A stretch of 64,000 nt of DNA from a bacterium (GCA_046757165.1 JBHHXT010000005.1:1396-65395), one strand, 5' to 3'; positions 42,217 to 63,998 are shown, numbered from the stretch's first letter. Numbers and translations are program-made. The notes: generated by a model from the letters alone, not told the origin.

Positions 42217-42613
42217 GGTTCGATGGAGGCAACTCCTTCAGTTTTGTATTTAGTTCAGACTCGTTCACAGTCTGGACCAGCCGTGGGTCAACATGGCTAG
42301 CCGCCTTGGCCAGGTCAGAATTTCGAAGCAACATTCCCCTCACCATCTCCACGATCTCTGAACCGAAATCACAAGAAGACGCGCAGAACCAGCTCAGGCC
42401 AAACCCACCTCTGAAAACGAACAAGTTCGTTTTCGGTCTCCTCCCCGGAGGAGATTTACCCCGCTCCCCTCCCGGGAGAGGACAGGTTCAGACAGGTTCA
42501 GAGTCTGAACCAGGAGTGGGTCAACATGGCCAGGCTTTCTGATTGGTTTTGCTTTACCACGCTAATTGTATAGTAATCATTTCTAGTCAAAAAAACAAGC
42601 TCCGAGCCTCAGG

Positions 42614-49748: not shown

Positions 49749-50357
49749 TTTGAAATCGTATATGAGAAGTTAGACTGGATTATTCCTAGCGCGGCAAAGC
49801 CGCAATAAAATTATGAACCGCAAAGACGCAAAACTCGCAAAGGTTCCAATCTTAAGAGACGGGCTCTAACGATCAGTCAATAATCTATCGTATTTTGACC
49901 TTTGCGTTCATTGCGTCTTTGCGGTTTAGTTTTCTTGCAAGAAAATGCAAAAGTTCGGCGGTAATACTCTAATGCAGCAACGTTGCAAATGAATGGAACG
50001 CTGGATTTAACGGATTTGCACGGAACTGAATTTGGTCCGATCCGTGTTCCATCTTTTGCACTTTTAGACGGAGAACACGCAGCGTTCAGGTATTTTCAGC
50101 TATTTCCGCCGCCATCTGAAAAACAAACATTACGAAATATACAAGAAAGGATCAAATAAACAACATATTTTCCCGCGTTGTCGTGTGCCTATCTCGATTG
50201 CGTGAGACATAATCAAAAGGCCCCTGAAATCACAGGGGCCCTTTATGGGAGGAGGAAGAGTAATCAGAACATCGAATGAACTGGTCGTTTATGACGCCAA
50301 AATCAGTGCGATGTTTCATCGCCACCGGCTGATGAACGTCCGGCTGCTGGTTGGCTC

Positions 50358-52034
50358 TCAAAATGAATAGCTAATCTCAATATCGACAAGCGTATTTTGA
50401 GAATCCCCGCTGTTGTCCTTCTGGCTGCGGTCGTCATCCATGTTGGCGAGTACATTGAGCTGCCAGTGTTTCGACAACGGCCAGGTCAGAAACAGCAGCA
50501 ATGAGTTTGTGTTTCTATCGGAATACAAATTGAACTGGTTGATATTTCCAGTCGGCGTGTCGGGATAGCGCCGCAGCAAAAAAGACTCCCGCAGGCTAAA
50601 AAGAATGCCATTGATTTCAAAAAAATCGACGGTGACGACCGGGCCGTACTCACGGTAGTTCTCAAAAGAAACGCTCACAACCGAGGCGACATCGACGGCG
50701 GTCAGGCGGGCGGCGGCCGGAAACGGCTCGTGTGTTTGCCGGCCATAGTGAACCCCGACGCCCACTTTCCAGTTGTCCGCGATTTTCAGATAGACCTCTG
50801 GCTCGATCTCCCAGTAGAAATCATCCGGAAGGCTGTTGACGGTGTGAAATTGATATTCGCGTTTGATGAAAGAACCCTCGAGCTTCATCCCCATTTTGGG
50901 ACCGAAACCGATCTCCATTTCCCCAAGAAAGTAATTCTCCCAAAAATCCTGAAAGAAATGATCCACCGGCACGTTCTGATAATCACGCACGCGAAACTCG
51001 TTCTCGAGCGAATAATTGAACCAGCGACCGAGTGACTGCGACCAGCTCGCTTCCAACCGGTGCTCGCGGTAGTTGTTGATGTCGAACTCCGGGTGATTGC
51101 GCTGGACATTGCGATATCCCAGACTGAACAGAGAGCGGGCGCCGGGACTGACCCTGGCAAACCCACCGAGGGTGTTGTTGAAGTAGTTCGGGTAGGAGCT
51201 GTCGATTCTGGCGTAGCGGCGCAGCAAGAACTCCTCTTGCAACTCGATGGATAAGGGACCGAAGGAGTGGTTAAAAGACAGATAACTCTGATTTTGAATG
51301 TACTTGAGATCAAAATCCCGGTAGACGGCAGTGCCTTCGAAGCGATTCTCCACTTTCAGACGGGAGCGTGACGACAGATCGCCTGCATACCGCAAGGTTG
51401 CCTCGCCCAGAAGATAGTCGCGGCTGTACTTGAAAAATGTCATGCCTTGCAAGACATTGCGCCGTCCGGTTGCGTAATCGAAGTTGAGCCGGAGACCGGT
51501 GAATGGATTCCCTTCTCCTTCCAGGAAAGTACTGTCCGCCTCGAACACGGTGAAGTTGAATCTTTGCCGCCACAGGTCGATGCCGGTTATGATCTCCTTT
51601 CTCCATTGAAATCGCGCTGCACCGCTGGAGGCCGTCATCTCCTCATCCTTTGACGCGGCTTCTGAAAAACCATCGAGGGGGTCCAATGTATCTGTTTCCG
51701 ACAAGAGCAGGTCCCAGATCGCTTCCATCCACAGATTAGCCGCGTAATAATCGCCGGCTTTGGCAAAATTATCCGCTTCTTTCAGCAGGCGAACGATCTC
51801 TCTCTTCAAAAGTGGATCGGTCAACGTCTCCTTGTTGCCTTTCACATATCGTCGAAGCCTGATCAGGTTGATGCGGTAGTCGGTCTCTTCGCTCCACAGA
51901 TCCTCAGAAACCGTATCAACGCGGGCAGCGGTGCCGACCAGGCTCACATCCTGACCCAAAAGCAGGTCACCAGTTACAAACAATCCGCTCAGAAGGAGGA
52001 AGCAACAATTGACCTGTCCAGTCTTCAAATCCAC
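50358..52034 (-). CDS. Outer-membrane beta-barrel protein (function unknown)
   Basis: 558 aa with signal peptide. Alternating amphipathic beta strands. C-terminal ...IEISYSF with terminal Phe (OMP sorting signal). Confidence 0.6.
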   Translation of the reverse strand: MDLKTGQVNCCFLLLSGLFVTGDLLLGQDVSLVGTAARVDTVSEDLWSEETDYRINLIRLRRYVKGNKETLTDPLLKREIVRLLKEADNFAKAGDYYAANLWMEAIWDLLLSETDTLDPLDGFSEAASKDEEMTASSGAARFQWRKEIITGIDLWRQRFNFTVFEADSTFLEGEGNPFTGLRLNFDYATGRRNVLQGMTFFKYSRDYLLGEATLRYAGDLSSRSRLKVENRFEGTAVYRDFDLKYIQNQSYLSFNHSFGPLSIELQEEFLLRRYARIDSSYPNYFNNTLGGFARVSPGARSLFSLGYRNVQRNHPEFDINNYREHRLEASWSQSLGRWFNYSLENEFRVRDYQNVPVDHFFQDFWENYFLGEMEIGFGPKMGMKLEGSFIKREYQFHTVNSLPDDFYWEIEPEVYLKIADNWKVGVGVHYGRQTHEPFPAAARLTAVDVASVVSVSFENYREYGPVVTVDFFEINGILFSLRESFLLRRYPDTPTGNINQFNLYSDRNTNSLLLFLTWPLSKHWQLNVLANMDDDRSQKDNSGDSQNTLVDIEISYSF

Positions 52035-52159: not shown

Positions 52160-53431
52160 CTAAACAATCGCAATCTTCTCAAACCTACTTCCAAGAACAG
52201 CCTCCGCCTCGACACGCAACCAATCTTCCAGCACCGAGGCATAAACGGAACGGAAATCTGTGCCGAACTGCAAATCGCCATCCGAGAGTTTTTCCAGACT
52301 CGGGTGTTGACCGAGGAAACCAGCTCTCACCGGTTTCCCAAAAATGAACATCGGCGCAGCCTGGCCGTGGTCGGTGCCGCGACTGCCGTTTTCTGCCACG
52401 CGCCGCCCGAATTCCGAGAAGACCATTCCCAACACACGCTCCCCCTGCCCCAGGTTCTCCAGATCCTTCTGGAACGCGGCGATGCTGTCGCTCAGCATTT
52501 TGAGCAAACGCTGGTGCACCCCCGCCTGGCTGGCATGGGTATCGAATCCGGAAAGCGAGATATAGTAGACGCGCGTGTCCAGGCCACCCGCAATCATGCC
52601 TGCCATCAGCTTCAAACCCTGCGCAAAGGGGTTTTGTGGATAATCCGTGTGGGTTTGGACCTGACGCACGGAGCGGCGAATCCGGTCTGCACTGAGCTGG
52701 GCGTTCACGGCCGTTCGCCGCAGGAAATCGAGCGCGGTCGTTTCCTGCCTTTCCGGGTCTTTGGGGACCTCCAGCCCGGTCGCATGGGAAGCCGCAAACA
52801 GCCGCGTCATGCGGTAGAGCCGCTCCGGGTTGGCCACCGCCACGCCGACACCGTGCTCTGCCCGGAAGGCAGGATTCAACGTCTGCCCCACGCTGACACC
52901 GAGCGTTGGGCTGCACTCGTTCAAATGCGCATTATCGCACGTGTGGTCGAACAGGCGCCCGATCCAACCCGTGGTCTCAAACCCATCCACCACACCGCTT
53001 TGCCAGATCTCCATGGAACGAAAATGTGAGCGGTCCGGGTTTGGATATCCCACTCCCTGGATAATCGCCAGCCTGCCAGTTTCATACAATTCCTTGAAAG
53101 CAGACAAACCCGGATGCACGCCCAACTCTCCGTTCAAATCCAGCACCTCCTCCTTCGCAATCGCAAGGGTAGGACGGAGCTGGTAATAGATATCGTTGCG
53201 GTATGGAATGACGGTGTTCAGGCCATCGTTGCCGCCGCCGAGCTGAATCACCACCAATACACGCTCTTCCGGCACGCCAGGCCTGTAGCGAACTTCAGCC
53301 GCATGAGACGGATTCTGAATTGCAAACAGCGAGCGCGCCAGGAAGGTGGGCACCGTTGCGCTGGCTGCGGCCAGAGTCAGCCCCTGTTTCATGAATTCCC
53401 GCCGGGTGACCAGTTTGACTGTCTCGCTCAT
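52160..53431 (-). CDS. DUF1501 family protein with twin-arginine signal
   Basis: TAT motif TRREFMKQGLTLAAASA. Sulfatase-like DUF1501 core. Confidence 0.75.
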   Translation of the reverse strand: MSETVKLVTRREFMKQGLTLAAASATVPTFLARSLFAIQNPSHAAEVRYRPGVPEERVLVVIQLGGGNDGLNTVIPYRNDIYYQLRPTLAIAKEEVLDLNGELGVHPGLSAFKELYETGRLAIIQGVGYPNPDRSHFRSMEIWQSGVVDGFETTGWIGRLFDHTCDNAHLNECSPTLGVSVGQTLNPAFRAEHGVGVAVANPERLYRMTRLFAASHATGLEVPKDPERQETTALDFLRRTAVNAQLSADRIRRSVRQVQTHTDYPQNPFAQGLKLMAGMIAGGLDTRVYYISLSGFDTHASQAGVHQRLLKMLSDSIAAFQKDLENLGQGERVLGMVFSEFGRRVAENGSRGTDHGQAAPMFIFGKPVRAGFLGQHPSLEKLSDGDLQFGTDFRSVYASVLEDWLRVEAEAVLGSRFEKIAIV

Positions 53432-53566: not shown

Positions 53567-55093
53567 TCACACCAACTGATAAGCAGGCAAGGTCATGATG
53601 TCTCCAATCAAGTACCGCAGCGCCTGTCTCTTATTCGTTCGGCTCATGCTGGACTGATAGTTTGCCAGGATCATGGCCCGCTCTTGCGCCGTCATCTCCT
53701 GAGACAGCAAGATTCTTGCCACGCCGCCCAGGGTCTCGTCAGGAGAGCCCTGGGGGCTGGCCAGCGACTCGGGTTCAAAATCAAGTCGCAAGTGCCCCAT
53801 GCGCATCATCTTCCTGGCGGCCTTATCCCTGCGCGGCCTGGAGACCTTCCCCCTTTCCCGCCTGGCGTTCGGCTCTGAGCGCGGATCGATTTCCGCCGGA
53901 ATCTTCCCCTGGGTGACTATTTGAGCAAACGTAAATCGCGTCAACAGGCGGGAGGTATCGATCCAGGTCCGGCCGCCGGGCCAGCCTTTGACATTGGGGG
54001 GAACGTACGGCACCTGCCCCATCATATCGAGGGCGTGCAGGTAAAAGGTCTCGTTATCTGTGCGCAGGTCAAGGGTCCTGGCCGTTCCGACCACGAGCTG
54101 CACCGGGCTCTTTATCTGCGACCCCATGACCTGCGACGTGTAAAAGTCATCATGAGCAAACATCCTGCGGAGCAATGTTTTAATGTCGTAATCGCTGTTG
54201 CGAAACGCGTCCGCCAGGTCCCGCACCACCGTCCCGGAGACCGGCTCAAACCCGAAGTAACCGAGTATTTTTCGCGTCATGAATTCGGCGCAAGCCGGTT
54301 GGTCAAGAATGATGTTCACAACCTCCTGCCCATCGAAGTCGCCGGTCTGGCCGAGAAAGGTTTTCTGGCCAAAGTCGTGCTGGGCCGTGCGGAATTTGAA
54401 ATTGAACCGGTCATTTGACCAGCCGGTGAAGGCCCGCGCCGCCTCTTTGACATCCTGCTCGTTGTAGTGACCCGGGCCGAGCGAAAAAAGCTCCACCAGC
54501 TCGCGCGCAAAATTCTCGTTTGGCTTGCCTTTGCGGTTTTGATTGTTGTCGAGATAGCGCAGCATGGCCGGGTCCCGGGTGATGCTCAGCAGCAAATCAC
54601 GAAAACTGCCGGTAGCGTGCTCATGAAACAGGTGCAGTTGCTTGAACACAAACAGCGGATGCTTGACCTTCTGCACGCTGGTCGCAAAATGACCGTGCCA
54701 GAAAAAGGTCATTTTCTCGGCCAGCATCTCCGCCGGCGTCCGGGTCGCAATCATGCGATTGACCCACGCGAGTTGGAGTTCACGCATGCGCTTTCGGTTG
54801 CGGCGCTGCAGCTTTTTCCGTTCTGCTTGTGACATCGAGCGGAATTTTTGCGCCGAAAAATTTTCATCTTCCGCCAGCCAATCCGGCATCTCCTGTGGCT
54901 GGTTTTGCAGCTCGAACAGCGCCTCGACACTCCCGTCCCGGCCAACCTTTTCGAAGGCGGCAATTTCGGAGGGTTTGCCGCCAAAGCCGGCGCGGTTTAG
55001 AAGATGTCTGGCCGTCGCCCAGTTCCATTTATCTGCGGTCAATGGCTTCGTCCTCAAACTCTCTTGGTTTACACTGCAAGAGAATAATAGCAT
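53567..55093 (-). CDS. DUF1800 family protein (partner of DUF1501)
   Basis: FWHGHFATS ... NENFARELVELFSLGPGHYNEQDVKEAARAFTGW are signature DUF1800 motifs. Start chosen at MLLFSC so as not to run into the R1 repeat. Confidence 0.7.
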   Translation of the reverse strand: MLLFSCSVNQESLRTKPLTADKWNWATARHLLNRAGFGGKPSEIAAFEKVGRDGSVEALFELQNQPQEMPDWLAEDENFSAQKFRSMSQAERKKLQRRNRKRMRELQLAWVNRMIATRTPAEMLAEKMTFFWHGHFATSVQKVKHPLFVFKQLHLFHEHATGSFRDLLLSITRDPAMLRYLDNNQNRKGKPNENFARELVELFSLGPGHYNEQDVKEAARAFTGWSNDRFNFKFRTAQHDFGQKTFLGQTGDFDGQEVVNIILDQPACAEFMTRKILGYFGFEPVSGTVVRDLADAFRNSDYDIKTLLRRMFAHDDFYTSQVMGSQIKSPVQLVVGTARTLDLRTDNETFYLHALDMMGQVPYVPPNVKGWPGGRTWIDTSRLLTRFTFAQIVTQGKIPAEIDPRSEPNARRERGKVSRPRRDKAARKMMRMGHLRLDFEPESLASPQGSPDETLGGVARILLSQEMTAQERAMILANYQSSMSRTNKRQALRYLIGDIMTLPAYQLV

Positions 55094-55098
55094 CGACA

Positions 55099-55287
55099 AA
55101 GTATTGTCGATAATTTTTTGGGTCAACCGTTTGCTGAAAAAACGGCCATTTTGAGCTTCGCTCGTCATTTGCTGTCATTTGCCCTGCGGGCGTCATTGAG
55201 CAAGCAAGGACCGAATGACGCCGTTGGCAAGTGACGGCGCGAAGCGCTAGATGACTTCTTTCGCAGCGAAGTCTGCGAAAAAAATTA
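55099..55287. repeat. MITE-like repeat family R1, copy B
   Basis: About 90% identical by eye to 18786-18972 in the same orientation. Lies only a few nt upstream of the start chosen for the DUF1800 gene. Confidence 0.85.
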
Positions 55288-55848
55288 GATCTCTTTGAAT
55301 TGCGGCTTGCTTTCTCCAAACTCGAAATCAAAATCATCCAGACCCAGCTCATCATCTGCGCCGGGCAGGTCATCCAGCGGCGTTCCCGGCCGGAATCTAT
55401 CACCTCGATGAAACCGCTTTCGGCCAGGCCAGCTTTCAAGCTCTCTCAACTTCTGACGTTGCGTCTCGGTCAGCAGCTTGTTGATGGCCAGCCGTGTGAG
55501 CACTTGCTTCAAGCGTATGTCCGTCATGAACTGGCCTATTTCTTTGACTTTGGAAGTGACTTCGCCTTCGGTCACATCGGTGGCCTGCATCAGCTCTCGT
55601 AATTCCAGCTCAGCAATCTTTCGGCTGGCTTGCTTTTGGATCGTTTCTATTTCTGCGGACAATCGCAGCTTCCTTATCTTCCCTAACTGCTCTTCCGACA
55701 AATCCAGCTCCTGCGCAAACTGCTCAATTCTGAAGCTGACCTGCCGGCGGAGTTTGAACGGCTGTTGGGCAACCGCATCTGAGCCCAAACCCAGAGAGAA
55801 TGATATGACCATTATCAATGCCAGGAGACTTTTTCTGGTCTTCATCAT
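55285..55848 (-). CDS. Periplasmic Spy/CpxP-family (LTXXQ motif) protein
   Basis: Signal peptide MMKTRKSLLALIMVISFSLG. LTETQRQKL fits the LTxxQ motif. Helical. Confidence 0.6.
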   Translation of the reverse strand: MMKTRKSLLALIMVISFSLGLGSDAVAQQPFKLRRQVSFRIEQFAQELDLSEEQLGKIRKLRLSAEIETIQKQASRKIAELELRELMQATDVTEGEVTSKVKEIGQFMTDIRLKQVLTRLAINKLLTETQRQKLRELESWPGRKRFHRGDRFRPGTPLDDLPGADDELGLDDFDFEFGESKPQFKEI

Positions 55849-56001
55849 GTTCGCTCCGTTTGTTTTGATCGTTTCGCCATCCTTGTTGCGACTGGAGCCA
55901 CCAGCCAACCTCCCGAAGTGTCGAGTCCTTGCGTCCTTCGGGAGGTTTTTGCTGTTGCCCCAATCACTTCGCCAACTTTCGTTCGTCTTGAACCTTTTTC
56001 G

Positions 56002-59000
56002 CTACTTCAGAAGTAGCATGCGCTTCGACATGTCGAAGGTGTCTCCCGCTTCAATCCGGTAAATGTAAATTCCGGATGCCACAGGCCGCCCGAGATCACT
56101 CTTGCCGTCCCAGGTCACGGTATACGTCCCGGCTTGCTGGGGCTTGTTTACCAGGGTTCGGACCTGCTGGCCCAGGAGGTTGAAGATCTTCAACGTCACC
56201 TCGCCACTCTGCGGCAGGTGATACTTGATGGCCGTTGTCGGGTTGAATGGATTGGGATAATTCTGCAGCAAGTCGAACCGCTCAGGCACAGCCGCGCCGT
56301 CCGAATTGACGTTTGTGATATTATCGAAATCCAATTCCATGTCGATGCCGTCTGCATCCTGACCACTACCCACTGCGACCGGAACGGAGTTGGTCTCGTC
56401 GGTGCCACCGAAATGGCCGTTCACGTAACCAGCTCCTGTGGCTTCTATTTTGTATTCGCCCGCCGGCAGACCGATGATGACGTAATTGCCATCCGCATCC
56501 GTCATCGCGTTGACCTGAACGTTGTTGTCGAGAGTTGCCTGAACGAGGATTCCCTCGATCGAGCTGCCATCGGCTTTGGCGAGAATTCTACCACGAATGG
56601 CGTACAACCCGGGCTGTTCGGCTGGATGCAAGCCGAAACTGATGCCGTCGGTCACTTCATTGGCATGGACGAACACCGGGTCAGCATTCTCGAACCGTCG
56701 CGCGTCCTTGAAAAACTCACCGATGAATCCCTCAGCCCAGGCAAAGACAAAGTACTTGCCAGCAGGCAGGTCGGTCAAACGGTAGTGGCCGCGCGGTCCG
56801 GTGAAGGTAATGTGTGGAACGCGGCGTTTCGGCGAAACCGCCACCACGACAGCGCCAAAAAGGGGCGAATCATCCCGGTCCGAGAAAACCCGGCCAGCAA
56901 TAGTTCCCCGCCGGTCGACATGCTGCTCCAGGTAGACGTTGATGCCGGCGGTCAGCTCGGGCGCCGTCACCTCAATGCGTGTGGCGTCCCGGCGACGTCT
57001 GGCATTGTCGTAGAATTCCGGGAAAAAACCTTCCGCGATCACGCGCACAAGATACAGGCCGGTTGGCAACCCACCCACTTTGTAGTGACCCTCTTCGTTG
57101 GTAAAGGTGCGGATGAAGCGCCCGGATTCGGCATGAATCACCTTGACCAGCGCTCGTGGAATGGGGATGGAATCTCCTTCGGTCGCAACCAGACCGGCGA
57201 TGCTGCCACCGTGCTCGAGGGTGAAATCTATGCCTTCGACTTTCGTGCTGTCGCCGACCGGAACGATCTCAGCATCCCCCTTGTTGTTTGCCTCTCTAAA
57301 GAACTCCCGCAGGTATCCATGTGCCCATGCCAGCAGGATGTAATTGCCCGAAGGCACGTTCTCGATGAGATAGCTGCCGAGAGAATCGGTCTCGGCGCGG
57401 AACCCATCATGGGCCAGCGCCAGGTCCCGGTCTGGCCGTTCTTTGAACGCCTGCACAATCGCACCGGCAATCGGCTCGCCGGTTACCTGGTCGAGCACCG
57501 TTCCTGCGATGGAGCTGCGCTTCACCAGGTCGAAGTCGATATCGGTGGTGTGTGAGTCCGGCGCCACGACCACCGGAGTCGCAGAAGCCCGGTTACGGGC
57601 GTCGTCATAAAACTCGGCATTGTATCCGCGCGCGCCCGCTTTCACCAGGTACGTCCCCGGCCGAATCTGCACGATATATTCGCCCCGGTCATTGGTGCGG
57701 GTCTCGCGCACAAAATGACGGTCGACCACTGCGACAGCCGCCAATCTGAACACTTTCACGTGCGCCCCTGCGATCGGCGCGCCGTCTGCCGCGTCGGTCA
57801 CAACACCTGAAATGGCGCTCGCGGTTGCCAGACCAAAATCGATATCCGGGACCGTTTCGGGCTCCACAACCGGCACAAACTGCGCATCTTCGATCTTGCG
57901 GGCATCGTCAAAGAATTCGCCTTTATAGCCAGGCTTGTTCGCACGTACGGCATAGGTTCCGGTTGGCAATGCCTCGACAACATAGGAGCCGTCGTCGTTT
58001 GTCAGCACGTGCCTCGCGAACCGAGGTTTCACGACCAGAAAGGCAACGACATGGACACCGCCCAGCGGCAAGCTGTCGCTGTCCGCGATGACTGTCCCTG
58101 CTATCTTGCCGCCCTCACTCAGGCCGAAATCGATGCCGTCGGCCGTATCGTTCTCCGCCAGATTCAGCGGCGTCGCTTCCAGATAGTTTCTGGTATCATC
58201 ATAAAACTCGCCGATAAACCCTTTCGCCCGTGCGTGGACGACGTACACCCCGGGGATGAGCTCGCCAAGCCGATAATTGCCGTCGGCATCGCTGCGAGTT
58301 CGCCTGATCCATGGAATTCTGCCCAGACGAACCGCTCGTACCACTGCGTCTTCAATGGGCGCGTTGTCGGCATCATTGGTAATGTTGCCTTCAATGGCAG
58401 CGCTTGGCGGGGGACTGACCCAGACCTTGGCAGCCGCCCGCAAACGCAACCCGTCGATCTCCACATGTGCCACCACGTGACCATGGCCCAGCCTGTCGCC
58501 GGCGGTGAAGACGCCCTCGTCGTTCATGTCGCCCAGCCGTTCCGGCCGGACCTGCCAGCGTACGTGCTCGGGCGGCACCGGTTTGCTTTCGTTCTTGTTG
58601 AACAGCACTGCTTCGAACTGCTTGTGGCTCCCGATGGGGATGACCGCGTGGTTGGGGACCACCTCGAGCCTAATCCTTGGCTTCGGCAGCCTGCCGATTC
58701 GAATCACCACCTCTTTGACGATGGTATGGCCGCGCACTCTGATGACGACTTTGATCACAACGACCCCGACATTTCTGCCGGCGATGAAAAAGCCGTCGTC
58801 GGTGACCGTACCCAGAGTATCCGGCTCCACGCTCCAGGTGATTTCCTCGACATCCACAGGCCGGCGCGCATCATTGAGAAGCGAAAACGCAAACACTTCC
58901 AACTGCAGACCTTCACCAGGCTCGACGACCGCCTCTTCCGGTGTCACGAGCACATCGACATCTTGAGCCTGGACCGGGCCAATCACGAATGCGCTCAGTG

Positions 59001-59076
59001 CAACTCCCAACAGAGTTGCCAAACATGTTTTCCATTTGTCCTTCATGGTATTCTCCGTTGCTAATAACAATTTCAC
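56002..59076 (-). CDS. Giant secreted surface protein: Big_2-like domain plus about 9 carboxypeptidase-regulatory-like repeats, with T9SS C-terminal sorting domain
   Basis: 1024 aa with a signal peptide. Repeating units GxVxDxxxGxPIxGAxV...A...GYxxEFYDDA. C-terminus LLQNYPNPFNPTTAIKY...IFNLLGQQVRTLV...GIYIYRI is Por_Secre_tail. Confidence 0.8.
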   Translation of the reverse strand: MKLLLATENTMKDKWKTCLATLLGVALSAFVIGPVQAQDVDVLVTPEEAVVEPGEGLQLEVFAFSLLNDARRPVDVEEITWSVEPDTLGTVTDDGFFIAGRNVGVVVIKVVIRVRGHTIVKEVVIRIGRLPKPRIRLEVVPNHAVIPIGSHKQFEAVLFNKNESKPVPPEHVRWQVRPERLGDMNDEGVFTAGDRLGHGHVVAHVEIDGLRLRAAAKVWVSPPPSAAIEGNITNDADNAPIEDAVVRAVRLGRIPWIRRTRSDADGNYRLGELIPGVYVVHARAKGFIGEFYDDTRNYLEATPLNLAENDTADGIDFGLSEGGKIAGTVIADSDSLPLGGVHVVAFLVVKPRFARHVLTNDDGSYVVEALPTGTYAVRANKPGYKGEFFDDARKIEDAQFVPVVEPETVPDIDFGLATASAISGVVTDAADGAPIAGAHVKVFRLAAVAVVDRHFVRETRTNDRGEYIVQIRPGTYLVKAGARGYNAEFYDDARNRASATPVVVAPDSHTTDIDFDLVKRSSIAGTVLDQVTGEPIAGAIVQAFKERPDRDLALAHDGFRAETDSLGSYLIENVPSGNYILLAWAHGYLREFFREANNKGDAEIVPVGDSTKVEGIDFTLEHGGSIAGLVATEGDSIPIPRALVKVIHAESGRFIRTFTNEEGHYKVGGLPTGLYLVRVIAEGFFPEFYDNARRRRDATRIEVTAPELTAGINVYLEQHVDRRGTIAGRVFSDRDDSPLFGAVVVAVSPKRRVPHITFTGPRGHYRLTDLPAGKYFVFAWAEGFIGEFFKDARRFENADPVFVHANEVTDGISFGLHPAEQPGLYAIRGRILAKADGSSIEGILVQATLDNNVQVNAMTDADGNYVIIGLPAGEYKIEATGAGYVNGHFGGTDETNSVPVAVGSGQDADGIDMELDFDNITNVNSDGAAVPERFDLLQNYPNPFNPTTAIKYHLPQSGEVTLKIFNLLGQQVRTLVNKPQQAGTYTVTWDGKSDLGRPVASGIYIYRIEAGDTFDMSKRMLLLK

Positions 59077-59271
59077 TTGACATTTCCTCGAGAGAAAACT
59101 ACATTAACTCAACATCACGGCCCGGAAAGATCCAAAGTTTGTACCGTTGCCCCGTCTTGTTGGGAACGTTCTCTTGGGCCAATTAAAGAAGGTTTCCGCT
59201 ATGCTGGCGGGGCAGTTTTATATTGCGCCTCTGTCTGTCTTTCCGCTCACCTCCTTTCAAAAGTCTTGCTT

Positions 59272-60792
59272 TCAGTTTCTGGGGACATTTCTGACACTCT
59301 TTCTCAATAACTCAAAGGAGACCTGAATCCCGGTGTTTGCTGCTTTGAAATTGCCTTTTTGCAAAGACTCGTAAGCCATTTTCCGGATTTCTTTGGCGTT
59401 TTGCAAAAGACGCATATTCCAATCTTGCGCGGACTCCAGCACCCTGCTCTCCGAGTCGGAAATCGCAGCGTCCAACTGGCTGAGCCTGAGTTGAACCTGC
59501 TCGCGCGTGGCTGAATCTTTTTCCCTGGCCGTCAGGATTCGCTCAGCCCGTGCCAGAAATCTCTGGGACGCCAGCACGCCTTCCAGCGCCACTCTTTGGA
59601 AGCCGGCGTCTGCCGCTTGCTCGGCTTTGTTGAGAGCAAACTGGGCCATCCTGACCAAAACCTGCGCATCTCGAGAGGCATTGGGTGAAACTTGCGCTCT
59701 TATCTCGGCTAAATCGGAACGGGTGTTTTCAATTTGACGCACGACCCTGTTTTCCATTCGCCGGCCAGTTTTCCCCTGCGCAAACCGCTGCGCCTTTCGG
59801 AGCATGTTTTCTGCCAGGCCAATTTTCCACAGCGCCTCGTTTGAACGGCCTTCCTGAATCGCGGCTTCTGCTTCGCTGATGAACCGGTGCGCCCTCTCAA
59901 TCAAAAGTCTCGCTCTCGGGTTCTGGCTCTGTGCGTTGGCCTCGCGGGCGGTCTCCAACAACTCCCGCACACGGAAAAGAGCCACCTCAGCTTGTTTCAC
60001 CAGTCCCGGAGAGTTGCCGCAAGCCAGGTCCATCGCGCGCAGCAAAAGCAAAATGCTATGGTTGAACAGCCGTTTGGCAACCTCCTTCCTGCCCTGGTGC
60101 CACTTCTCTTCTGCATCTCTGACCGTCTCCAGGGCCTGCTGGTAGATTCTTCGCGCCGCCGGGTTCGGGCATTTCTCAAAAACATCCAGGGCGCGCTCTT
60201 TGAGGGTCTCGAATTTCCTTTTTGCCTCCTGAATCCTGTCCATCTCCGAATCCTGAGAGTCCTGGCATAACTCGATCACCCGCTGCGACAATTCTTTTGC
60301 GACCCGAAAATGTTCAACGGCGCTTTCAATTCTTTTAGCATCGAGATTGTGTTCGGCCTCATCACGGTTTCTCCTGGCTCTTTCCAACACACGAATTGCT
60401 TGCTTACTGTGACAATGCGCCACCAGGTCCTCGGCTCGTCTGAACAGTTCTTCAACCTGGCTGCGCAGTCTTCGTATCGGAACCGCGAGGATGAGTTTCG
60501 CTGCCGCTTCGAGATCTGAGAAGGCCGCATCAATCAAAACCAGTGCCCGACGACACTTCCCTGCCAGCCCCTGCTCGACGGCCCGGTCGCGCTTCTCGTG
60601 CGCCTGGCGAACCAGCTCGAGCGCCCGTTCGCTGTCGAAAGAATGGGCAAGCTCCGCCACACGCTGAAGGTCCCGATCCAATCTCTGAATCTTTCTCTTT
60701 GCGCGCTCACAATCCTGAGCCAGAACGGACTGCGCCGAAAGAAGGTTGACCGCCAAAAGAATCAGTGTGCCTTTACAGATGATGCGAAACAT
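59272..60792 (-). CDS. Secreted all-helical repeat protein, function unknown
   Basis: 506 aa with a signal peptide. Arg/Glu/Ala-rich helical repeats with regularly spaced Cys (DCERAK, AHCHSK, ELCQDS, EKCPN, LACGN). Confidence 0.5.
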   Translation of the reverse strand: MFRIICKGTLILLAVNLLSAQSVLAQDCERAKRKIQRLDRDLQRVAELAHSFDSERALELVRQAHEKRDRAVEQGLAGKCRRALVLIDAAFSDLEAAAKLILAVPIRRLRSQVEELFRRAEDLVAHCHSKQAIRVLERARRNRDEAEHNLDAKRIESAVEHFRVAKELSQRVIELCQDSQDSEMDRIQEAKRKFETLKERALDVFEKCPNPAARRIYQQALETVRDAEEKWHQGRKEVAKRLFNHSILLLLRAMDLACGNSPGLVKQAEVALFRVRELLETAREANAQSQNPRARLLIERAHRFISEAEAAIQEGRSNEALWKIGLAENMLRKAQRFAQGKTGRRMENRVVRQIENTRSDLAEIRAQVSPNASRDAQVLVRMAQFALNKAEQAADAGFQRVALEGVLASQRFLARAERILTAREKDSATREQVQLRLSQLDAAISDSESRVLESAQDWNMRLLQNAKEIRKMAYESLQKGNFKAANTGIQVSFELLRKSVRNVPRN

Positions 60793-60833
60793 AATTTATT
60801 CCTAAATAGCTAACGTTAGCGCCGTAAGTGAAC

Positions 60834-60848
60834 GCAAGGCGTATGCCA
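60834..60848 (-). promoter_or_regulatory. Candidate sigma-54 (-24/-12) promoter
   Basis: Minus strand reads TGGCAT-ACGCC-TTGC (consensus TGGCAC-N5-TTGC), about 45 nt upstream of the 60792 start. Upstream region 60900-61018 carries four GTACR half-sites. Confidence 0.5.
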
Positions 60849-61018
60849 GGCGCATTCAAGCAGGGCGACGAAGACACTCAAGTATTTTATCTTTTACGGC
60901 TTAGCGTGATCGCTTCAGGTTTTCCGGAGATCAGAGCAGGGTGAAGTATTTTCAGAGTGTACGGTTTGGTACGAGCACCGATGTACGTCAGGGTACAGAT
61001 CCATCCAATGAGTCGCGG

Positions 61019-62368
61019 CTACACAACGCCGAGCCGCTCCATCATGGAGTAAAGCTTGCGGCGCGTGATGCCCAGAAGCTTGGCCGCCTTGCTCTTGTTC
61101 CCGCCGGCCTTGTTGAGCGCATTCTGGAGCAAGTCCTTTTCAACTTGCACCAGGGACAGCCCTTCGTCTGGAAAGCTCAGGGTTGTGTTGCTTGAAGCCA
61201 TGGGCAAGTTCTTCACGTGCGGCGGCAAGTCTTCCTCATCGATCGTGTCTGTGCTGGACATGATCATGGAACGCTCGACAATATTCTCCAATTCGCGTAC
61301 GTTTCCCGGCCAGCCGTATTTCATCAATTGCTCCAGCGCCGCGCTCGAGATGGCGTTTTCATCCCGTCCGAGTTTCCTGAGACAATGGCAGACGAGATCG
61401 GGAATATCTTCTTTGCGCGTACGTAAGGGCGGCAGGGTGATGGGGAAAACATTGATGCGGTAGTACAAATCCTCGCGGAAGGTTTTTTCCTGCAGCATTT
61501 GCTCCAGGTCGCAATTGGTGGCTGCGATGGTTCGGGCTTTGGTTTGGATCGTTTTCGTCCCCCCCAGTCGCTCGATTTGGCGGTTCTGCAGCACACGCAG
61601 CAGCTTCACCTGCGTGGCCGGCGAAATCTCCCCAATTTCGTCCAGGAAAATGGTACCGCTCCCTGCCAGCTCGAAGCGGCCGATCTTCATCTTGTCTGCG
61701 CCGGTAAAGGCGCCTTTTTCGTGTCCGAACAGCTCGCTTTCCAGCAAACTCTCCGGCAGAGCACCGCAGTTGACGGCCACAAACGGCTCGTTGGCGCGCA
61801 GGCTCAAATGATGAATGGCCAGCGCCACCAACTCCTTGCCTGTCCCGCTTTCGCCGCGAATCAATACCGTCGCGTCGGTGGGCGCGACTTTTTCCACCAT
61901 TTTGTAGACCTGTTGCATGGCGCCGCTCATGCCCACCATATTTTCGAGAGAGTACTTGTCCTTCAGCTCACGCTTGAGCTGGCGATTCTCCTCAGCCAGC
62001 TTGCGTTTTTCCATGATATGCTTGACCTTCATCTTGAGCTCATCCATCTCGAAGGGCTTGATGATGTAGTCGTAGGCCCCCTTCTTCATCGCATCGACGG
62101 CATTCTGAGCTGTGGCGTAAGCGGTCATCAAAATGACCTCCGTGCCCGGCCGCCTCTTCTTGACGGTGTCGAGCACGAACAAGCCATCTTTACCCGGCAT
62201 CTTCAAATCCGTGACCACGAGGTCGAACTCACTTTGGTCGAACTTCTCGACCCCCTCTTCTGCCGTTTCAGCAGTCGTCACCTGGTATCCTTCCGGCTCC
62301 AGGGCAAATCGGAGGATCTTGCACATCTTGGGTTCATCGTCGATGATGAGGATGGTTCCGTTTTGCAT
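61019..62368 (-). CDS. Sigma-54-dependent Fis-family response regulator (NtrC-like)
   Basis: REC domain (ILIIDDE...DLVVTDLKMPG). AAA+ sigma54-activator domain (GESGTGKE, GAFTGA motif). C-terminal Fis HTH. Confidence 0.9.
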   Translation of the reverse strand: MQNGTILIIDDEPKMCKILRFALEPEGYQVTTAETAEEGVEKFDQSEFDLVVTDLKMPGKDGLFVLDTVKKRRPGTEVILMTAYATAQNAVDAMKKGAYDYIIKPFEMDELKMKVKHIMEKRKLAEENRQLKRELKDKYSLENMVGMSGAMQQVYKMVEKVAPTDATVLIRGESGTGKELVALAIHHLSLRANEPFVAVNCGALPESLLESELFGHEKGAFTGADKMKIGRFELAGSGTIFLDEIGEISPATQVKLLRVLQNRQIERLGGTKTIQTKARTIAATNCDLEQMLQEKTFREDLYYRINVFPITLPPLRTRKEDIPDLVCHCLRKLGRDENAISSAALEQLMKYGWPGNVRELENIVERSMIMSSTDTIDEEDLPPHVKNLPMASSNTTLSFPDEGLSLVQVEKDLLQNALNKAGGNKSKAAKLLGITRRKLYSMMERLGVV

Positions 62369-62693
62369 CAGCTCTCTTCCTTCGATGAGTGGGCTATCGG
62401 ATTCTCAGCAGTTGATTTTGATAATACACTTAAAGCCAAAATTTATTTTCCGGTTGAAGAAAGTGAAGAACAGGAGTGCAAAAATCAGCGAAGCGTATTT
62501 TTGCAATAATCAAGGCTAATGTATGTAAAAATACGTTCGCTGCGCTCACTGATTCTTACACTCCTGCTCAGGCGAAGTGACATGCCTTTAAGTCCAATCC
62601 GTCAGATTCGTTAAATCCGTGTCATCCGTGTTCTTTTTCATTTTGCACTTTTTTGCAAAGTTTGGCGGTGATGCCATAAACAAAGCAATCTGC

Positions 62694-63998
62694 CTAGCCG
62701 CTCGCCGGCAAATAAACTCGTATCTTCGTGCCCTTCCCTTTCTCACTCTCCACCTCAATCCAGCCCTCATGTTTCTCCACCAGTCTCTTGCAAATCGCCA
62801 GTCCGAGACCGCTGCCAGAGGTCTTGGTGGTGTAGAACGGCTCGAAGACTCTATCGCCCTCCACCTCAAAGCCACACCCCGTGTCCTCGATTTCGACTTT
62901 GACGTAGTGTCGCCCCTTCTTGCGCCGCTCGTTCTTGAGCCTGATGGCTATCGTGCCGCCGCCATTCATCGCCTGCACCGCGTTGAGGGCCAGATTCAAG
63001 ATGAGCTGATTGACGGCATCTTCATCATGCCGGACTTCTGGCAGCTCATCAAACTCCTTCTCCACCGTGACATTTGCCTGCCGGACTTCATCTTCAAGCG
63101 AGACCAAAGATTTTTCAACTGAGCTTTTCAAGTCAGTGGCGGTGCGCTCCAAATCGCGGTCGCGGGCAAAGGTCAAAAAATCGCTGACCAGTCGATTGAG
63201 CCGCCGCACTTCACTCGGGATATACTCGAACAGCTCGTCCGGCTCCTCGCTGCTATCATATTTTGATTTCAGGACATCGGCCGTGCCTTTGATGATTCCC
63301 AACGGGTTGCGAATTTCATGGGCAACGGTTGCAGCCATCTGTCCCATCGCCGCCAGCCGCTCAGCCTTTCGCAACGACTCGTGTGTCTTCATCAGAAGGG
63401 AGATGGCCCAAAAAAGAAACGTCGAAAAAACCACCACCACAGCCACACTCACAATCCCGCCCAGAATCAGTCCCCTCTGAAACCCTCGCAGCATATCAAA
63501 AAACCCCGCGCTTGCCTGCACCACAACCACCGCCACGACATCGTCAAAGGGATCGAACACCGGGGCATAAGCGCTTTTGAAACGGTTGCCCGCAACCACC
63601 TGCATCGCGGCGACGGCCGGAATTCCAGCGATGGCCTGGGTTACCGCCAGACTGTCCTCTTCCAGAAAGGACAACCGTTCTCCGTACGGGAACAGAGCTT
63701 GACTGCTGGCGATCACCCTGTAGGTTTCGTCCACGAGGTAAACCCCCTGCAGGCGATTCTCCAGGTGTATCGTGGTCAAGATTTCATTCATGGTGGGCAG
63801 CACCAGCGTCAGCCTGCCGGTCTCAATCTCCGCCGCATAGTCACCCGTTTCCATCACTTTGGCCGTGAGCGTCGCCACCGAAAGCAGGCGCGCTCCCAGG
63901 TCCTCCTCCAGGAATTTACCCATGTCTTGCAGGAACCGCCAGCTTCCAAAAGTAAAGCCCAGCAGCACCAACACAGTCAGCAGGACCATCCCGCTCAC
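62694..63998 (-). CDS. Sensor histidine kinase (possibly N-terminally truncated by window edge)
   Basis: H-box HEIRNPLGII. HATPase_c N/G boxes. N-terminal TM helix. ORF abuts the window end. Confidence 0.8.
   Translation of the reverse strand: MSGMVLLTVLVLLGFTFGSWRFLQDMGKFLEEDLGARLLSVATLTAKVMETGDYAAEIETGRLTLVLPTMNEILTTIHLENRLQGVYLVDETYRVIASSQALFPYGERLSFLEEDSLAVTQAIAGIPAVAAMQVVAGNRFKSAYAPVFDPFDDVVAVVVVQASAGFFDMLRGFQRGLILGGIVSVAVVVVFSTFLFWAISLLMKTHESLRKAERLAAMGQMAATVAHEIRNPLGIIKGTADVLKSKYDSSEEPDELFEYIPSEVRRLNRLVSDFLTFARDRDLERTATDLKSSVEKSLVSLEDEVRQANVTVEKEFDELPEVRHDEDAVNQLILNLALNAVQAMNGGGTIAIRLKNERRKKGRHYVKVEIEDTGCGFEVEGDRVFEPFYTTKTSGSGLGLAICKRLVEKHEGWIEVESEKGKGTKIRVYLPASG

Follow-up and report, generated by a model that had tools for sequence, protein, structure and literature searches.

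A predicted sigma-54-dependent two-component envelope module with a convergent small RNA in KSB1/Calditrichota-like bacteria

The window, a stretch of 64,000 nt analysed here on both strands (128 kb), carries on its minus strand a cluster in which genes for a two-component system precede genes for exported proteins. This arrangement raises the question of whether the regulator controls its neighbours and how such control would be distributed over them. The initial annotation had proposed an envelope or secretion-related regulon driven by the adjacent two-component system, with the gene order histidine kinase, sigma-54 enhancer-binding response regulator (EBP), gap, 506-aa gene, type IX secretion system (T9SS) cargo gene and Spy/CpxP-like gene. 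Gene and domain calls bore out this order. The regulon is supported by a conserved promoter with conserved dyads and by cluster products that are envelope proteins throughout; the partner of the 506-aa gene and the reading of the spacer behind it had to be corrected.

Two-component system

62694-63998, minus strand: sensor histidine kinase (HisKA and HATPase_c, Pfam), N-terminus cut at the window end
62369-62693, minus strand: kinase-EBP spacer of 325 bp, not conserved
61019-62368, minus strand: NtrC-family sigma-54 EBP response regulator (REC, Sigma54_activat, AAA_lid_14 and HTH_8, Pfam)

The kinase consists of two transmembrane segments around a periplasmic domain of ~150 aa, followed by HisKA and HATPase_c. 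Its orthologues have 450-452 aa and are 65-70% identical. The kinase core is closest to AtoS/ZraS, yet scores under their NCBIfam cutoffs. The response regulator shows the architecture of the NtrC subfamily, with REC (E-value 1.6e-30), Sigma54_activat (7.3e-72) and Fis-type HTH (1.5e-13) domains and a GAFTGA motif at ~61714. Its closest solved structures are the Aquifex NtrC-family proteins 4L4U (E 1e-99) and 1NY5, NifA, and ZraR (1OJL), and its orthologues are 76-88% identical. A search of the 64-kb window for rpoN found none.

The combination of a REC, AAA+ (GAFTGA) and Fis-HTH activator with a neighbouring HisKA kinase is shared with NtrC, AtoSC, ZraSR and Aquifex NtrC1/NtrC4. Unlike NtrC, AtoSC and ZraSR, the system reaches no equivalog cutoff, its kinase has an uncharacterised periplasmic domain, and its predicted targets are envelope proteins and not nitrogen, acetoacetate or zinc genes.

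The spacer between kinase and EBP genes contains an imperfect hairpin of ~100 nt (62468-62569) and ACGGAT repeats, and showed no similarity to any other locus. It measures 35-42 bp in L011 and L012 and 0.2-2 kb in other loci, where DUF433 or toxin-like genes or their fragments lie inside. This spacer is a hot-spot for insertions.

Sigma-54 promoter and enhancer dyads

60982-60997, minus strand: distal dyad TGTACCCTGACGTACA of the type TGTACC-N4-GGTACA, position and sequence kept in orthologous loci
60958-60973, minus strand: proximal dyad CGTACCAAACCGTACA, ~120 bp upstream of the -24 GG
60834-60848, minus strand: sigma-54 promoter TGGCAT-N5-TTGC (CTGGCATACGCCTTGCG), 56 nt before the ATG of the 506-aa gene

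The gap of 226 bp between the EBP gene and the gene for the helical 506-aa protein (60793-61018) holds the promoter and both dyads. The -24 GG (60846-60847) and -12 GC (60834-60835) doublets are exactly 10 bp apart, as in sigma-54 promoters. Transcription is predicted to start near 60822-60824, giving a leader of ~30 nt with AGGA ahead of the ATG at 60792. The element had been described as the only good -24/-12 match, and this held in two ways. It is the sole TGGCAY-N5-TTGC in the 64 kb, with 0.37 expected over the 128 kb of both strands and ~7e-4 for the EBP-helical gap on one strand. In a scan of the whole window with a matrix derived exclusively from 12 orthologous loci, it scored 20.6 bits, and the runner-up of 127,956 positions reached 12.6 bits.

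A -24/-12 element precedes the helical gene in 22 of 22 other loci, as TGGCAY-N5-TTGC in all but L146, which has TTGA at -12. There is one promoter per locus, always 5' of the helical gene, and no second sigma-54 site was found. Since the flanks of promoter and dyads are unconserved and the helical proteins are just 37-52% identical, the conservation of these elements represents a phylogenetic footprint. Promoter and dyads are kept also in L001 and L144, which have no two-component system next to them.

Four GTACR half-sites had been placed within 120 bp upstream of the promoter. The sites are real and are better described as two dyads of 16 bp each, with a centre-to-centre spacing of 24 bp, which occupy ~111-149 bp upstream of the -24 element and thus lie partly beyond 120 bp. 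The pattern GTAC-N6-GTAC occurs twice in the window (0.10 expected), both times in the EBP-helical gap. Recognisable dyads, some degraded to degenerate half-sites, accompany the promoter in nearly all 22 other loci; those of L142 and L141 were missed by the pattern scan and recognised by eye only. In most loci two dyads are ~24 bp apart; one of these loci is L144, where the helical protein is a far more remote member of the family. Their position falls within the 80-200 bp upstream range of EBP sites, and we regard them as putative binding sites of the response regulator.

A chance origin of the -24/-12 match and the GTAC sites in ordinary intergenic DNA is extremely improbable. Although 32 of 100 whole-window shuffles yielded at least one TGGCAY-N5-TTGC, chance does not account for a place, strand and ATG distance that are constant in 22 other loci despite unconserved flanks, for an 8-bit outlier in the matrix scan or for dyads that are unique in the window. 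The cross-species conservation effectively refutes this reading.

The half-site consensus of NtrC is TGCACC, with N5 between the halves of a dyad. As in NtrB/NtrC-type systems, a pair of dyad sites is located 100-150 bp 5' of a TGGCAC-N5-TTGC promoter. A single base separates the half-site TGTACC from that of NtrC, and TGCACC itself is present in L010, L015 and L139; unlike NtrC, the dyad spacer is N4.

Products and extent of the cluster

59272-60792, minus strand: 506-aa exported protein with a signal peptide and six tandem three-helix-bundle repeats of ~80 aa each
56002-59046, minus strand: T9SS cargo of 1014 aa with an N-terminal Ig-like region, seven CarboxypepD_reg stretches and a type A C-terminal sorting domain
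55285-55848, minus strand: LTXXQ-like (CpxP/Spy/ZraP-type) exported protein of 187 aa, variable cluster member
53567-55168, minus strand: DUF1800 gene (Pfam), variable cluster member
52160-53431, minus strand: DUF1501 gene (Pfam), variable cluster member
50358-52034, minus strand: outer-membrane barrel protein of 558 aa (541 aa from the NCBI start), AlphaFold2 model
50214-50245, minus strand: first strong intrinsic terminator past the sigma-54 promoter, a 13-pair stem followed by a T-run

The 506-aa protein had been called cysteine-punctuated and without recognisable family. Searches of Pfam, NCBIfam and PDB sequences indeed assigned it to no family, but the protein is not an orphan: it belongs to a large unnamed family with 673 cluster representatives. 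The cysteines are true of this one sequence and are no family feature, as the 25 homologues compared share no conserved cysteine column. A weak match to DUF4398 (PF14346) at residues 260-320 remained below the Pfam threshold (16.8 vs 27.9). The DUF4398 protein PA2901 (PDB 4fm3) has one such unit where the present protein has six repeats, and no lipobox was detected in the latter. No structural match was found for the whole chain. A single long helix (residues 80-127) spans repeat 1 into repeat 2, and in this joining of repeats the protein resembles tandem three-helix-bundle rods of the EzrA/spectrin type.

The cargo protein is the T9SS protein with CarboxypepD_reg repeats of its first description; its true start is the ATG at 59046, which gives 1014 and not 1024 aa, and "giant" does not apply. 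Its C-terminus matched TIGR04183 (Por_Secre_tail) with 56.9 bits against a cutoff of 23, and PF18962 with 35.9 against 27. Together with a signal peptide read off the sequence, these matches assign the protein to the T9SS type A cargo. Orthologues are 52-67% identical. The gene is missing in three loci of one sub-clade and has been gained or lost independently of the helical gene. In Porphyromonas, PorXY/SigP controls type IX secretion; PorX is not a sigma-54 activator and targets genes of the secretion machinery. Both cases link a two-component system with T9SS output in the FCB group; unlike PorXY/SigP, the NtrC-type activator would here control a cargo gene and not the machinery.

The DUF1800/DUF1501 pair also lies 3' of the cargo gene in L003, L011 and L015. 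At the end of the cluster, the 558-aa protein has no Pfam family. Its AlphaFold2 model (pLDDT 75.7, pTM 0.65) consists of an N-terminal periplasmic three-helix bundle and a beta-barrel of ~20 strands, for which Foldseek returned generic outer-membrane barrels (~E 1e-8). In L140, L142 and L143 the barrel gene follows directly 3' of the helical gene at 9-100 nt, with 42-44% identity, and in most remaining loci it is located downstream of it. The constant partner of the 506-aa gene is the barrel, which the initial annotation did not mention; between them, the cargo and LTXXQ genes are inserted variably. The abutting of helical and barrel genes where the cargo is absent suggests one transcription unit that received the cargo as an insertion.

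Gene order and strand are identical across all loci compared. The gaps separating the cluster genes are long (~100-225 nt) and may contain separate promoters of a type outside the model of our scan. No terminator-like sites were found on the minus strand in the intergenic gaps between 52000 and 60792. A 10-bp hairpin lies past the cargo stop codon, and weaker stems occur within the 558-aa gene and at 50308-50322, ahead of the strong terminator.

The protein described earlier as Spy/CpxP-like retains this label at reduced strength. It has a weak LTXXQ match (E = 0.047; 14.8 bits, cutoff 24.3) over positions 4-99 of the 100-position profile and two LTXXQ-type motifs (LSEEQ and LTETQ) read from the sequence; its orthologues in L001 and L002 have weak precomputed PF13801/PF07813 matches. 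The presence of an LTXXQ/Metal_resist-type gene close to a sigma-54 two-component system, with ZraS and ZraR among the best NCBIfam and PDB matches, resembles ZraPSR, a sigma-54-driven envelope-stress system (PMC4987338). The two have in common the control, predicted in the present case, of a neighbouring exported all-helical protein by a sigma-54 two-component system, and some loci possess an LTXXQ-family gene. It is nevertheless very unlikely that the system is a ZraSR/ZraP orthologue of zinc or envelope stress whose true output is the LTXXQ chaperone. ZraS scored 197 against a cutoff of 479 bits and ZraR 420 against 760, and the AtoS/AtoC and NtrC models outscored both. The LTXXQ gene is three genes away, was detected in 3 of the first 14 loci (tblastn) and never adjoins the promoter, which serves the helical gene every time. 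In place of the small ZraP, the neighbour here is a six-repeat protein of 506 aa. Further differences from ZraPSR are the lack of a divergent promoter pair and an LTXXQ gene that is distal and not part of every locus, and no metal-binding motif was identified.

Spacer between the helical and cargo genes

59247-59258, minus strand: orphan Shine-Dalgarno (SD) sequence GAAAGGAGGTGA, adjoining the sRNA gene, no start codon after it
59112-59224, plus strand: predicted antisense sRNA of ~110 nt (covariance model), U-run ending near 59224
59077-59105, plus strand: sigma-70-type promoter of the sRNA, -35 TTGACA (59077-59082), 17-bp spacer, -10 TACATT (59100-59105)

The spacer between helical and cargo genes, 200-340 nt long across the loci, is predicted to carry a new convergent antisense sRNA gene of ~110 nt on the plus strand (59077-59224). 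It combines the sequence features of a cis-antisense sRNA gene, namely an own promoter, a covarying structure, an intrinsic terminator and a position on the opposite strand. The promoter is the best promoter-like match of the region (10/12), its -35 box 30 nt from the cargo ATG on the opposite strand. TTGAC(A/T)-N17-TAnnTT, with a spacer of 17 bp each time, was found in ~13 of the 17 loci with enough sequence; in L014, L015 and L138 the promoter is poor or abuts the stem.

Stem P1 is formed by GCCCCGTC (59149-59156) and GGCGGGGC (59206-59213), and encloses an inner stem P2 with the loop GGGCC (59176-59180). This loop may form a pseudoknot with GGCCC in the 5' tail (59119-59123), for which one compensatory example exists. 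The terminator hairpin covaries and is followed by a U-run. In the alignment 90.5% of cells were paired, 9 pairs had compensatory changes, none of 500 shuffles reached the observed score, and slid controls gave 43-60% paired. The folding energy within the window was unexceptional (z = -0.8). Rfam contained no match for 58950-59350, neither at gathering thresholds nor at E <= 10. Of 18 close-clade loci possessing the cargo gene, 17 gave a match to the covariance model, as a single copy and antisense every time; with filters off, none was found in the 3 loci lacking this gene. As the distant L144 keeps the cargo gene and the orphan SD without the hairpin, the module can do without the sRNA.

The strand was called from the G-U bias and the promoter and terminator consensus, on an alignment fitted in plus-strand orientation. 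Counts of G-U vs A-C pairs were 28 vs 11, favouring the plus strand. We consider it rather unlikely, though worth weighing, that the element acts on the minus strand instead, as a structured intercistronic leader of the cargo gene with the orphan SD and a pseudoknotted hairpin and without an antisense sRNA; it might stabilise the mRNA, serve in its processing or act as a switch that binds a ligand or a protein. The stems are strand-symmetric, so that compensatory changes suit both strands, and in 3 of 12 loci the operon strand gives the hairpin of marginally higher stability. The orphan SD clearly reads like a functional motif of that strand, where it outlasts the hairpin in L144. In contrast, a U-G pair of P1 in 11 of 15 sequences becomes a C-A mismatch on the operon strand, and the summed hairpin energy is worse by 56 kcal/mol (-307 vs -363 on the sRNA strand). 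Nor does such a leader account for the plus-strand TTGACA-N17-TAnnTT with its invariant spacing or for the A-run ahead of the stem, which on the other strand is the U-run after it.

The motif ~25-60 nt ahead of the cargo ATG is conserved and readable on both strands. Read on the minus strand as TGTAAT-N17-GTCAA, it is a candidate ECF-like promoter, from which the cargo and downstream genes would be transcribed outside the sigma-54 regulon, the two-component system driving the 506-aa gene only. We judge this unlikely. The length of the spacers and the independent coming and going of the cargo gene are in favour of it, but the plus-strand reading is a near-perfect sigma-70 promoter, and the minus-strand motif fits no consensus known to us. 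Moreover, a terminator is lacking 3' of the helical gene, and the abutting of the barrel and helical genes where the cargo is missing argues for one transcription unit.

The orphan SD GAAAGGAGGTGA is complementary to 12 nt of the usual 3' tail of 16S rRNA. Among close-clade loci that possess the cargo gene, 17 of 18 have it at the corresponding place, as does the distant L144; none of 3 loci without cargo has it. Its central A/G variation would preserve the 16S pairing via G-U. In cryIIIA of Bacillus thuringiensis, an SD of this kind (STAB-SD) is an mRNA stabiliser. The two share a perfect SD (GAAAGGAGG) far from any start codon in an untranslated stretch, and we would guess from this analogy at a stabilising function; unlike STAB-SD, the orphan SD lies between two cistrons, ~200 nt ahead of the next ATG, and in a different phylum.

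For the sRNA gene, one near precedent is GadY, whose gene lies in the gadX-gadW spacer. Another is the intra-operon sRNA known from Streptomyces coelicolor (PMC3896431). All have an own promoter and an antisense position in an intercistronic spacer, which permits control of processing or relative expression. The present element, predicted from sequence, bears no sequence or structural relation to these two. Unlike them, it has a predicted promoter that faces the start of the downstream gene head-to-head, it is tied to a T9SS cargo gene and a putative sigma-54 operon, and an orphan SD lies alongside.

We infer activator binding, transcription, operon extent, the signal sensed and the expression and action of the sRNA in the following model, which as a whole we consider probable: a conserved sigma-54-dependent two-component envelope module with a convergent sRNA in KSB1/Calditrichota-like bacteria. 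The membrane kinase would sense a periplasmic signal and phosphorylate the NtrC-family activator, which would bind the two TGTACC-N4-GGTACA dyads ~120 and 144 bp upstream of the -24/-12 promoter and, through its GAFTGA loop and ATP hydrolysis, open the complex of the sigma-54 holoenzyme. Transcription would enter the gene for the Sec-exported rod of six three-helix bundles, most likely read through the cargo, LTXXQ, DUF1800 and DUF1501 genes into the outer-membrane barrel gene, and end at the terminator at 50214-50245. The sRNA, if transcribed from its sigma-70-type promoter, would be fully complementary to the intercistronic mRNA of the operon and probably sets the amount of cargo relative to the helical protein by transcriptional interference, duplex-directed processing or both, while the orphan perfect SD probably binds ribosomes on the operon mRNA. 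With the sRNA gene and the orphan SD in the spacer, co-transcription of the cargo and helical genes is probably gated and not simple. In uncultured KSB1/Calditrichota-like bacteria, the kinase and sigma-54 activator thus very probably switch on a set of conserved genes for the cell envelope.

Gene cluster and its conservation

The operon-strand gene set occupies 50.2-64.0 kb of the window on the minus strand and comprises, in order of transcription:

62694-63998, minus strand: histidine kinase gene, cut by the window end
61019-62368, minus strand: gene of an NtrC-family response regulator (the activator) with REC, Sigma54_activat, AAA_lid_14 and HTH_8 domains and a GAFTGA motif
59272-60792, minus strand: gene of the 506-aa helical protein
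56002-59046, minus strand: T9SS cargo gene (1014 aa, real start ATG at 59046) with seven CarboxypepD_reg stretches and a type A sorting domain
55285-55848, minus strand: LTXXQ-like gene
53567-55168, minus strand: DUF1800 gene
52160-53431, minus strand: DUF1501 gene
50358-52034, minus strand: gene of the 558-aa outer-membrane barrel

Gene and domain calls confirmed the order given in the initial annotation for the minus strand, namely kinase, activator, helical protein, cargo and Spy/CpxP-like protein. Its description of the cargo as a T9SS CarboxypepD_reg protein also stands (the sorting domain scores 56.9 bits against TIGR04183, cutoff 23), but the start at ATG 59046 shortens the product from the claimed 1024 to 1014 residues. 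The closest solved structures to the activator are the Aquifex NtrC-family regulators 4L4U and 1NY5, NifA and ZraR. For the activator no NCBIfam equivalog model exceeds its cutoff, and those of AtoC, NtrC, the PEP-CTERM regulator and ZraR score alike.

The cluster was compared with 22 other non-redundant loci encoding a homologue of the 506-aa protein (handles L001-L146), the homologues of L144 and L146 being more distant; L145 was not counted separately, its protein and gene order being the same as in L144. The locus records name candidate division KSB1, Calditrichaceae and 'Cytophagia' metagenome-assembled genomes. Identity across loci is far higher for the activator (76-88%) and the kinase (65-70%) than for the cargo (52-67%) and the helical protein (37-52% in the closer loci). 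The cargo gene is missing in three loci of one sub-clade (L140, L142 and L143), where a barrel homologue (42-44% identity) lies 9-100 nt 3' of the helical gene. Because a barrel homologue is found downstream in most remaining loci as well, the helical protein and the barrel are, by gene order, the constant pair, and the T9SS cargo, LTXXQ and DUF1800/DUF1501 genes are read as inserts between them. The LTXXQ gene was found in the window, L001 and L002 only, and a lipoprotein-like gene is a further insert restricted to L011 and L015. No intergenic terminator-like site was detected on the operon strand between the sigma-54 promoter and position 52000, and the first strong one (50214-50245) follows immediately after the barrel gene, a pattern that is compatible with a single long transcription unit without proving it. 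The gap between the cargo and LTXXQ genes contains a GC-rich 10-bp hairpin, CCTCCCGAAG ... CTTCGGGAGG (55915-55955, minus strand), with a 19-nt loop and no clear U-run, possibly a processing site or weak terminator within the putative operon.

Wherever a locus extends far enough upstream (L002, L003 and L139), genes for DUF488 and NYN/YacP-like proteins regularly lie before the kinase gene; the window stops short of this region. The spacer between kinase and activator genes measures 325 bp in the window (62369-62693), is non-coding and contains three ACGGAT repeats besides an imperfect hairpin (62468-62569, about 100 nt). Across loci its length ranges from 35 bp to 2 kb, and it has taken up foreign material more than once, with DUF433 and PIN-like toxin-antitoxin-type pairs in L010, L015 and L139 and a gene fragment in L002. 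As a candidate sRNA or promoter site this spacer was rejected, since in some loci it is 35-42 bp long, in others unrelated inserts fill it, and nothing similar was found elsewhere; it is treated here as an insertion hot-spot.

Predicted promoter and enhancer elements of the helical-protein gene

The sequence CTGGCATACGCCTTGCG at 60834-60848 is the sole TGGCAY-N5-TTGC within the window, as the initial annotation had claimed for a good -24/-12 match. In a scan of both window strands with a position matrix derived solely from the corresponding sites in 12 other loci, it scored 20.6 bits, against 12.6 bits for the runner-up among 127,956 positions. A candidate at 20501-20523 (plus strand, 11.4 bits) was discarded, as it lies inside a minus-strand gene without a plus-strand gene downstream. 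Each of the 22 other loci has exactly one -24/-12 element on the correct strand, typically beginning 53-64 nt 5' of the ATG within non-alignable flanks; in L146, the most distant locus, the -12 box reads TTGA. No second sigma-54 promoter was found 5' of the cargo or LTXXQ genes in any locus.

The four GTACR half-sites noticed earlier proved real and conserved, but are better described as two 16-bp dyads, TGTACCCTGACGTACA (60982-60997) and CGTACCAAACCGTACA (60958-60973), which are 24 bp apart. They precede the -24 GG by about 120 and 144 bp. The pattern GTAC-N6-GTAC occurs twice in the 64 kb, both times in the promoter gap, versus 0.10 expected, and in other loci almost exclusively at the equivalent position. 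The dyad consensus is TGTACC-N4-GGTACA (with TGCACC half-sites in some loci), which differs from the NtrC site by one base per half-site. Judged by these scores and counts, the promoter and enhancer elements are real, far beyond chance. Both are retained in L001 and in the distant L144, neither of which has an adjacent two-component system, and therefore the regulatory link is to the helical-protein gene and not to gene adjacency.

Between dyads and promoter the window has direct repeats of AAGTATTTT (60880-60888 and 60944-60952) and AGCAGGGYGA (60859-60868 and 60935-60944), which could form a bending or IHF-type region; other loci are merely AT-rich here. A perfect 12-bp palindrome, GCTAACGTTAGC (60811-60822, minus strand), falls within the 5' leader predicted for the 506-aa gene. 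L001 and L004 share it exactly and L012 nearly so, despite different flanks; farther loci have other small palindromes or none at this position. Its possible roles are those of an operator or a 5' stem-loop. A conserved 5'-UTR hairpin of the gene was rejected, because GCTAACGTTAGC does not extend beyond the nearest relatives and the hairpins predicted are weak and inconsistent.

By every sequence-level test of the class, the module would work like an NtrBC/ZraSR-type sigma-54 system. It is not orthologous to ZraSR: its scores fall far short of the cutoffs, and the LTXXQ gene here is an optional, distal member. The module is in line with the proposal that sigma-54 chiefly controls the cell exterior (PMC3162934).

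The exported helical protein and the barrel

The 506-aa protein has no match by sequence in Pfam, NCBIfam or PDB, and to this extent the initial finding of no recognisable family holds; it nonetheless belongs to a large unnamed one. A word-indexed search returned 27 relatives. A full profile search gave 673 cluster representatives at E <= 1e-3, of which 136 reached E <= 1e-30; almost all measure 480-520 aa and match over their full length. Searched in this way, the family is sizeable, unnamed and of fixed architecture. The structure prediction that had been proposed for the protein was carried out with AlphaFold2 and gave an all-helical model of 17 helices (mean pLDDT 85.6, pTM 0.38). The family alignment was divided into six segments, each about 80 aa long, for profile-to-profile comparison: repeats 1-4 and 6 matched in register, nearly all pairs with E values of 1e-5 to 3e-11; repeat 5 is divergent. 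The model and the in-register repeats together therefore describe the protein as a predicted Sec-exported rod or chain of six three-helix bundles. Cysteine punctuation is not a family trait, since no cysteine column is conserved in 25 sequences and the seven cysteines are peculiar to the window copy.

The model of the 558-aa protein combines an N-terminal three-helix bundle with a barrel of about 20 strands (pLDDT 75.7, pTM 0.65) that resembles generic outer-membrane barrels in structure comparison. The protein has no Pfam family, and the word-index search yielded 20 relatives. Homology of its N-terminal helices to a repeat of the 506-aa protein was considered and is not supported: hhalign placed them in the expected register, but with a probability of 0.3% and E = 0.19.

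In all four exported proteins of the cluster, a glutamine directly follows the likely signal-peptidase site (sites judged by eye). Gln26 of the 506-aa protein (codon 60715-60717) and Gln28 of the 558-aa protein are invariant in both family alignments; the cargo protein has VQA/QD and the LTXXQ protein AVA/QQ. This looks like the 'Q-rule' (N-terminal pyroglutamate), described for Bacteroidetes and not for the whole FCB group (PMC5837995).

The helical-to-cargo spacer and its implications

The spacer between the helical and cargo genes (59047-59271) is conserved blockwise across loci; among its elements are:

59077-59105, plus strand: predicted sRNA promoter TTGACA-N17-TACATT, the region's top sigma-70-like match
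59247-59258, minus (operon) strand: orphan Shine-Dalgarno (SD) sequence GAAAGGAGGTGA, followed by no start codon

The plus-strand promoter has its -35 box 30 nt away from the start codon of the cargo gene; about 13 of 17 loci share its 17-bp spacing. Downstream come a 5' tail of 25-70 nt, usually with GGCCC, and a hairpin with an outer stem GCCCCGUC/GRCGGGGC, a variable inner stem and GGGCC in the loop, then a U-run. A covariance model built on five sequences found exactly one copy per cargo-bearing locus of the close clade, always antisense, including the copies of L011 and L015 that a regular expression had missed; it gave no further match in the window, nor across some 240 kb of flanking DNA. 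With filters off, the covariance search found no element in the three cargo-less loci, and the element is also absent in the distant L144. In L011 an extra gene has been inserted, yet the element still adjoins the cargo gene; in L015 the insertion parts the two. The homologous insert genes (about 320 aa, lipoprotein-like N-terminus; L011 11452-12432, L015 8822-9769) lie on opposite sides of the hairpin, and in L015, where the insert divides hairpin from cargo gene, the hairpin loop and promoter look degraded.

In an alignment of 15 sequences, 90.5% of cells are paired, and compensatory changes occur at nine of 20 pairs; covariation reaches a score of 0.277, versus 0.169 for shuffles (0 of 500 reach 0.277) and 0.06-0.10 for slid controls. 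One pair of the outer stem is U-G in 11 of the 15 sequences and would read C-A on the operon strand. Counts of G-U versus A-C (28 vs 11) favour the plus strand, and summed hairpin energies are -363 kcal/mol for the plus and -307 kcal/mol for the operon strand. The spacer thus probably contains a convergently oriented sRNA gene, about 110 nt long, whose transcript would be complementary to the intercistronic operon mRNA. With no Rfam match even at E <= 10, it is a candidate for a new RNA family. A metagenome scan for copies beyond the operon, using the pattern GCCCCGTC-N(18-40)-GGGCC-N(18-42)-GRCGGGGC, gave no covariance-model match among the loci listed (0 of 80). The 5' GGCCC could form a pseudoknot with the loop GGGCC; there is one compensatory example only (L016/L137), and per-locus shuffle tests were not significant. 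On the model of GadY, and of an intra-operon sRNA of Streptomyces (PMC3896431), the spacer sRNA could steer duplex processing or bring about transcriptional interference and so uncouple cargo from helical-protein output. Elsewhere in the window, a whalefall-1 sRNA (RF01762) unrelated to the spacer sRNA was matched at Rfam gathering level (42402-42457, minus strand; 43.3 bits vs threshold 37) with both hairpins intact, between ORFs of 323 aa (42614-43585) and 442 aa (40888-42216) on the same strand.

The orphan SD occurs at the equivalent site in 17 of 18 cargo-bearing loci of the close clade and in L144, and is absent from loci without the cargo gene. GAAAGGAGGTGA matches, as its complement, 12 nt of the 3' tail that 16S rRNA usually has. 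Its sole common variation, a central A to G change (L011, L013, L138 and L141), would still pair with 16S rRNA through G-U, which argues for a function on the operon mRNA. A small ORF behind it was rejected, as most loci lack a suitably spaced start codon and the occasional ORFs of 5-40 codons are unconserved. Our best guess is a STAB-SD-like stabiliser or a ribosome landing pad.

The envelope-regulon interpretation offered initially was thus largely right, apart from the cysteine claim, and had missed the barrel partner and the content of the spacer. Sigma-54 two-component control is textbook matter; what appears new here is the placing of two uncharacterised envelope families on one activator family, and the candidate sRNA and orphan-SD gate before a T9SS cargo gene. 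A bolder reading, which we consider unlikely, is that the 506-aa rod and the barrel with its own periplasmic bundle would form a new inducible trans-periplasmic assembly, the signature output of one NtrC-type activator family in KSB1/Calditrichota-like lineages, and that one clade would have recruited a new sRNA class and an orphan super-SD as an intra-operon gate setting the T9SS cargo per unit assembly. If true, this would be the first sigma-54 plus antisense-RNA control of a type IX secretion substrate. Less expected are the sRNA and the orphan SD, which would offer a compact, conserved and experimentally tractable case of convergent transcription inside an operon, linked to a T9SS cargo. 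More broadly, a complete regulatory circuit of sensor, activator, enhancer dyads and promoter could be read from sequence alone in phyla with almost no genetics, and two sizeable uncharacterised envelope families, the six-repeat helical protein and the barrel, would gain a common regulator and a context.
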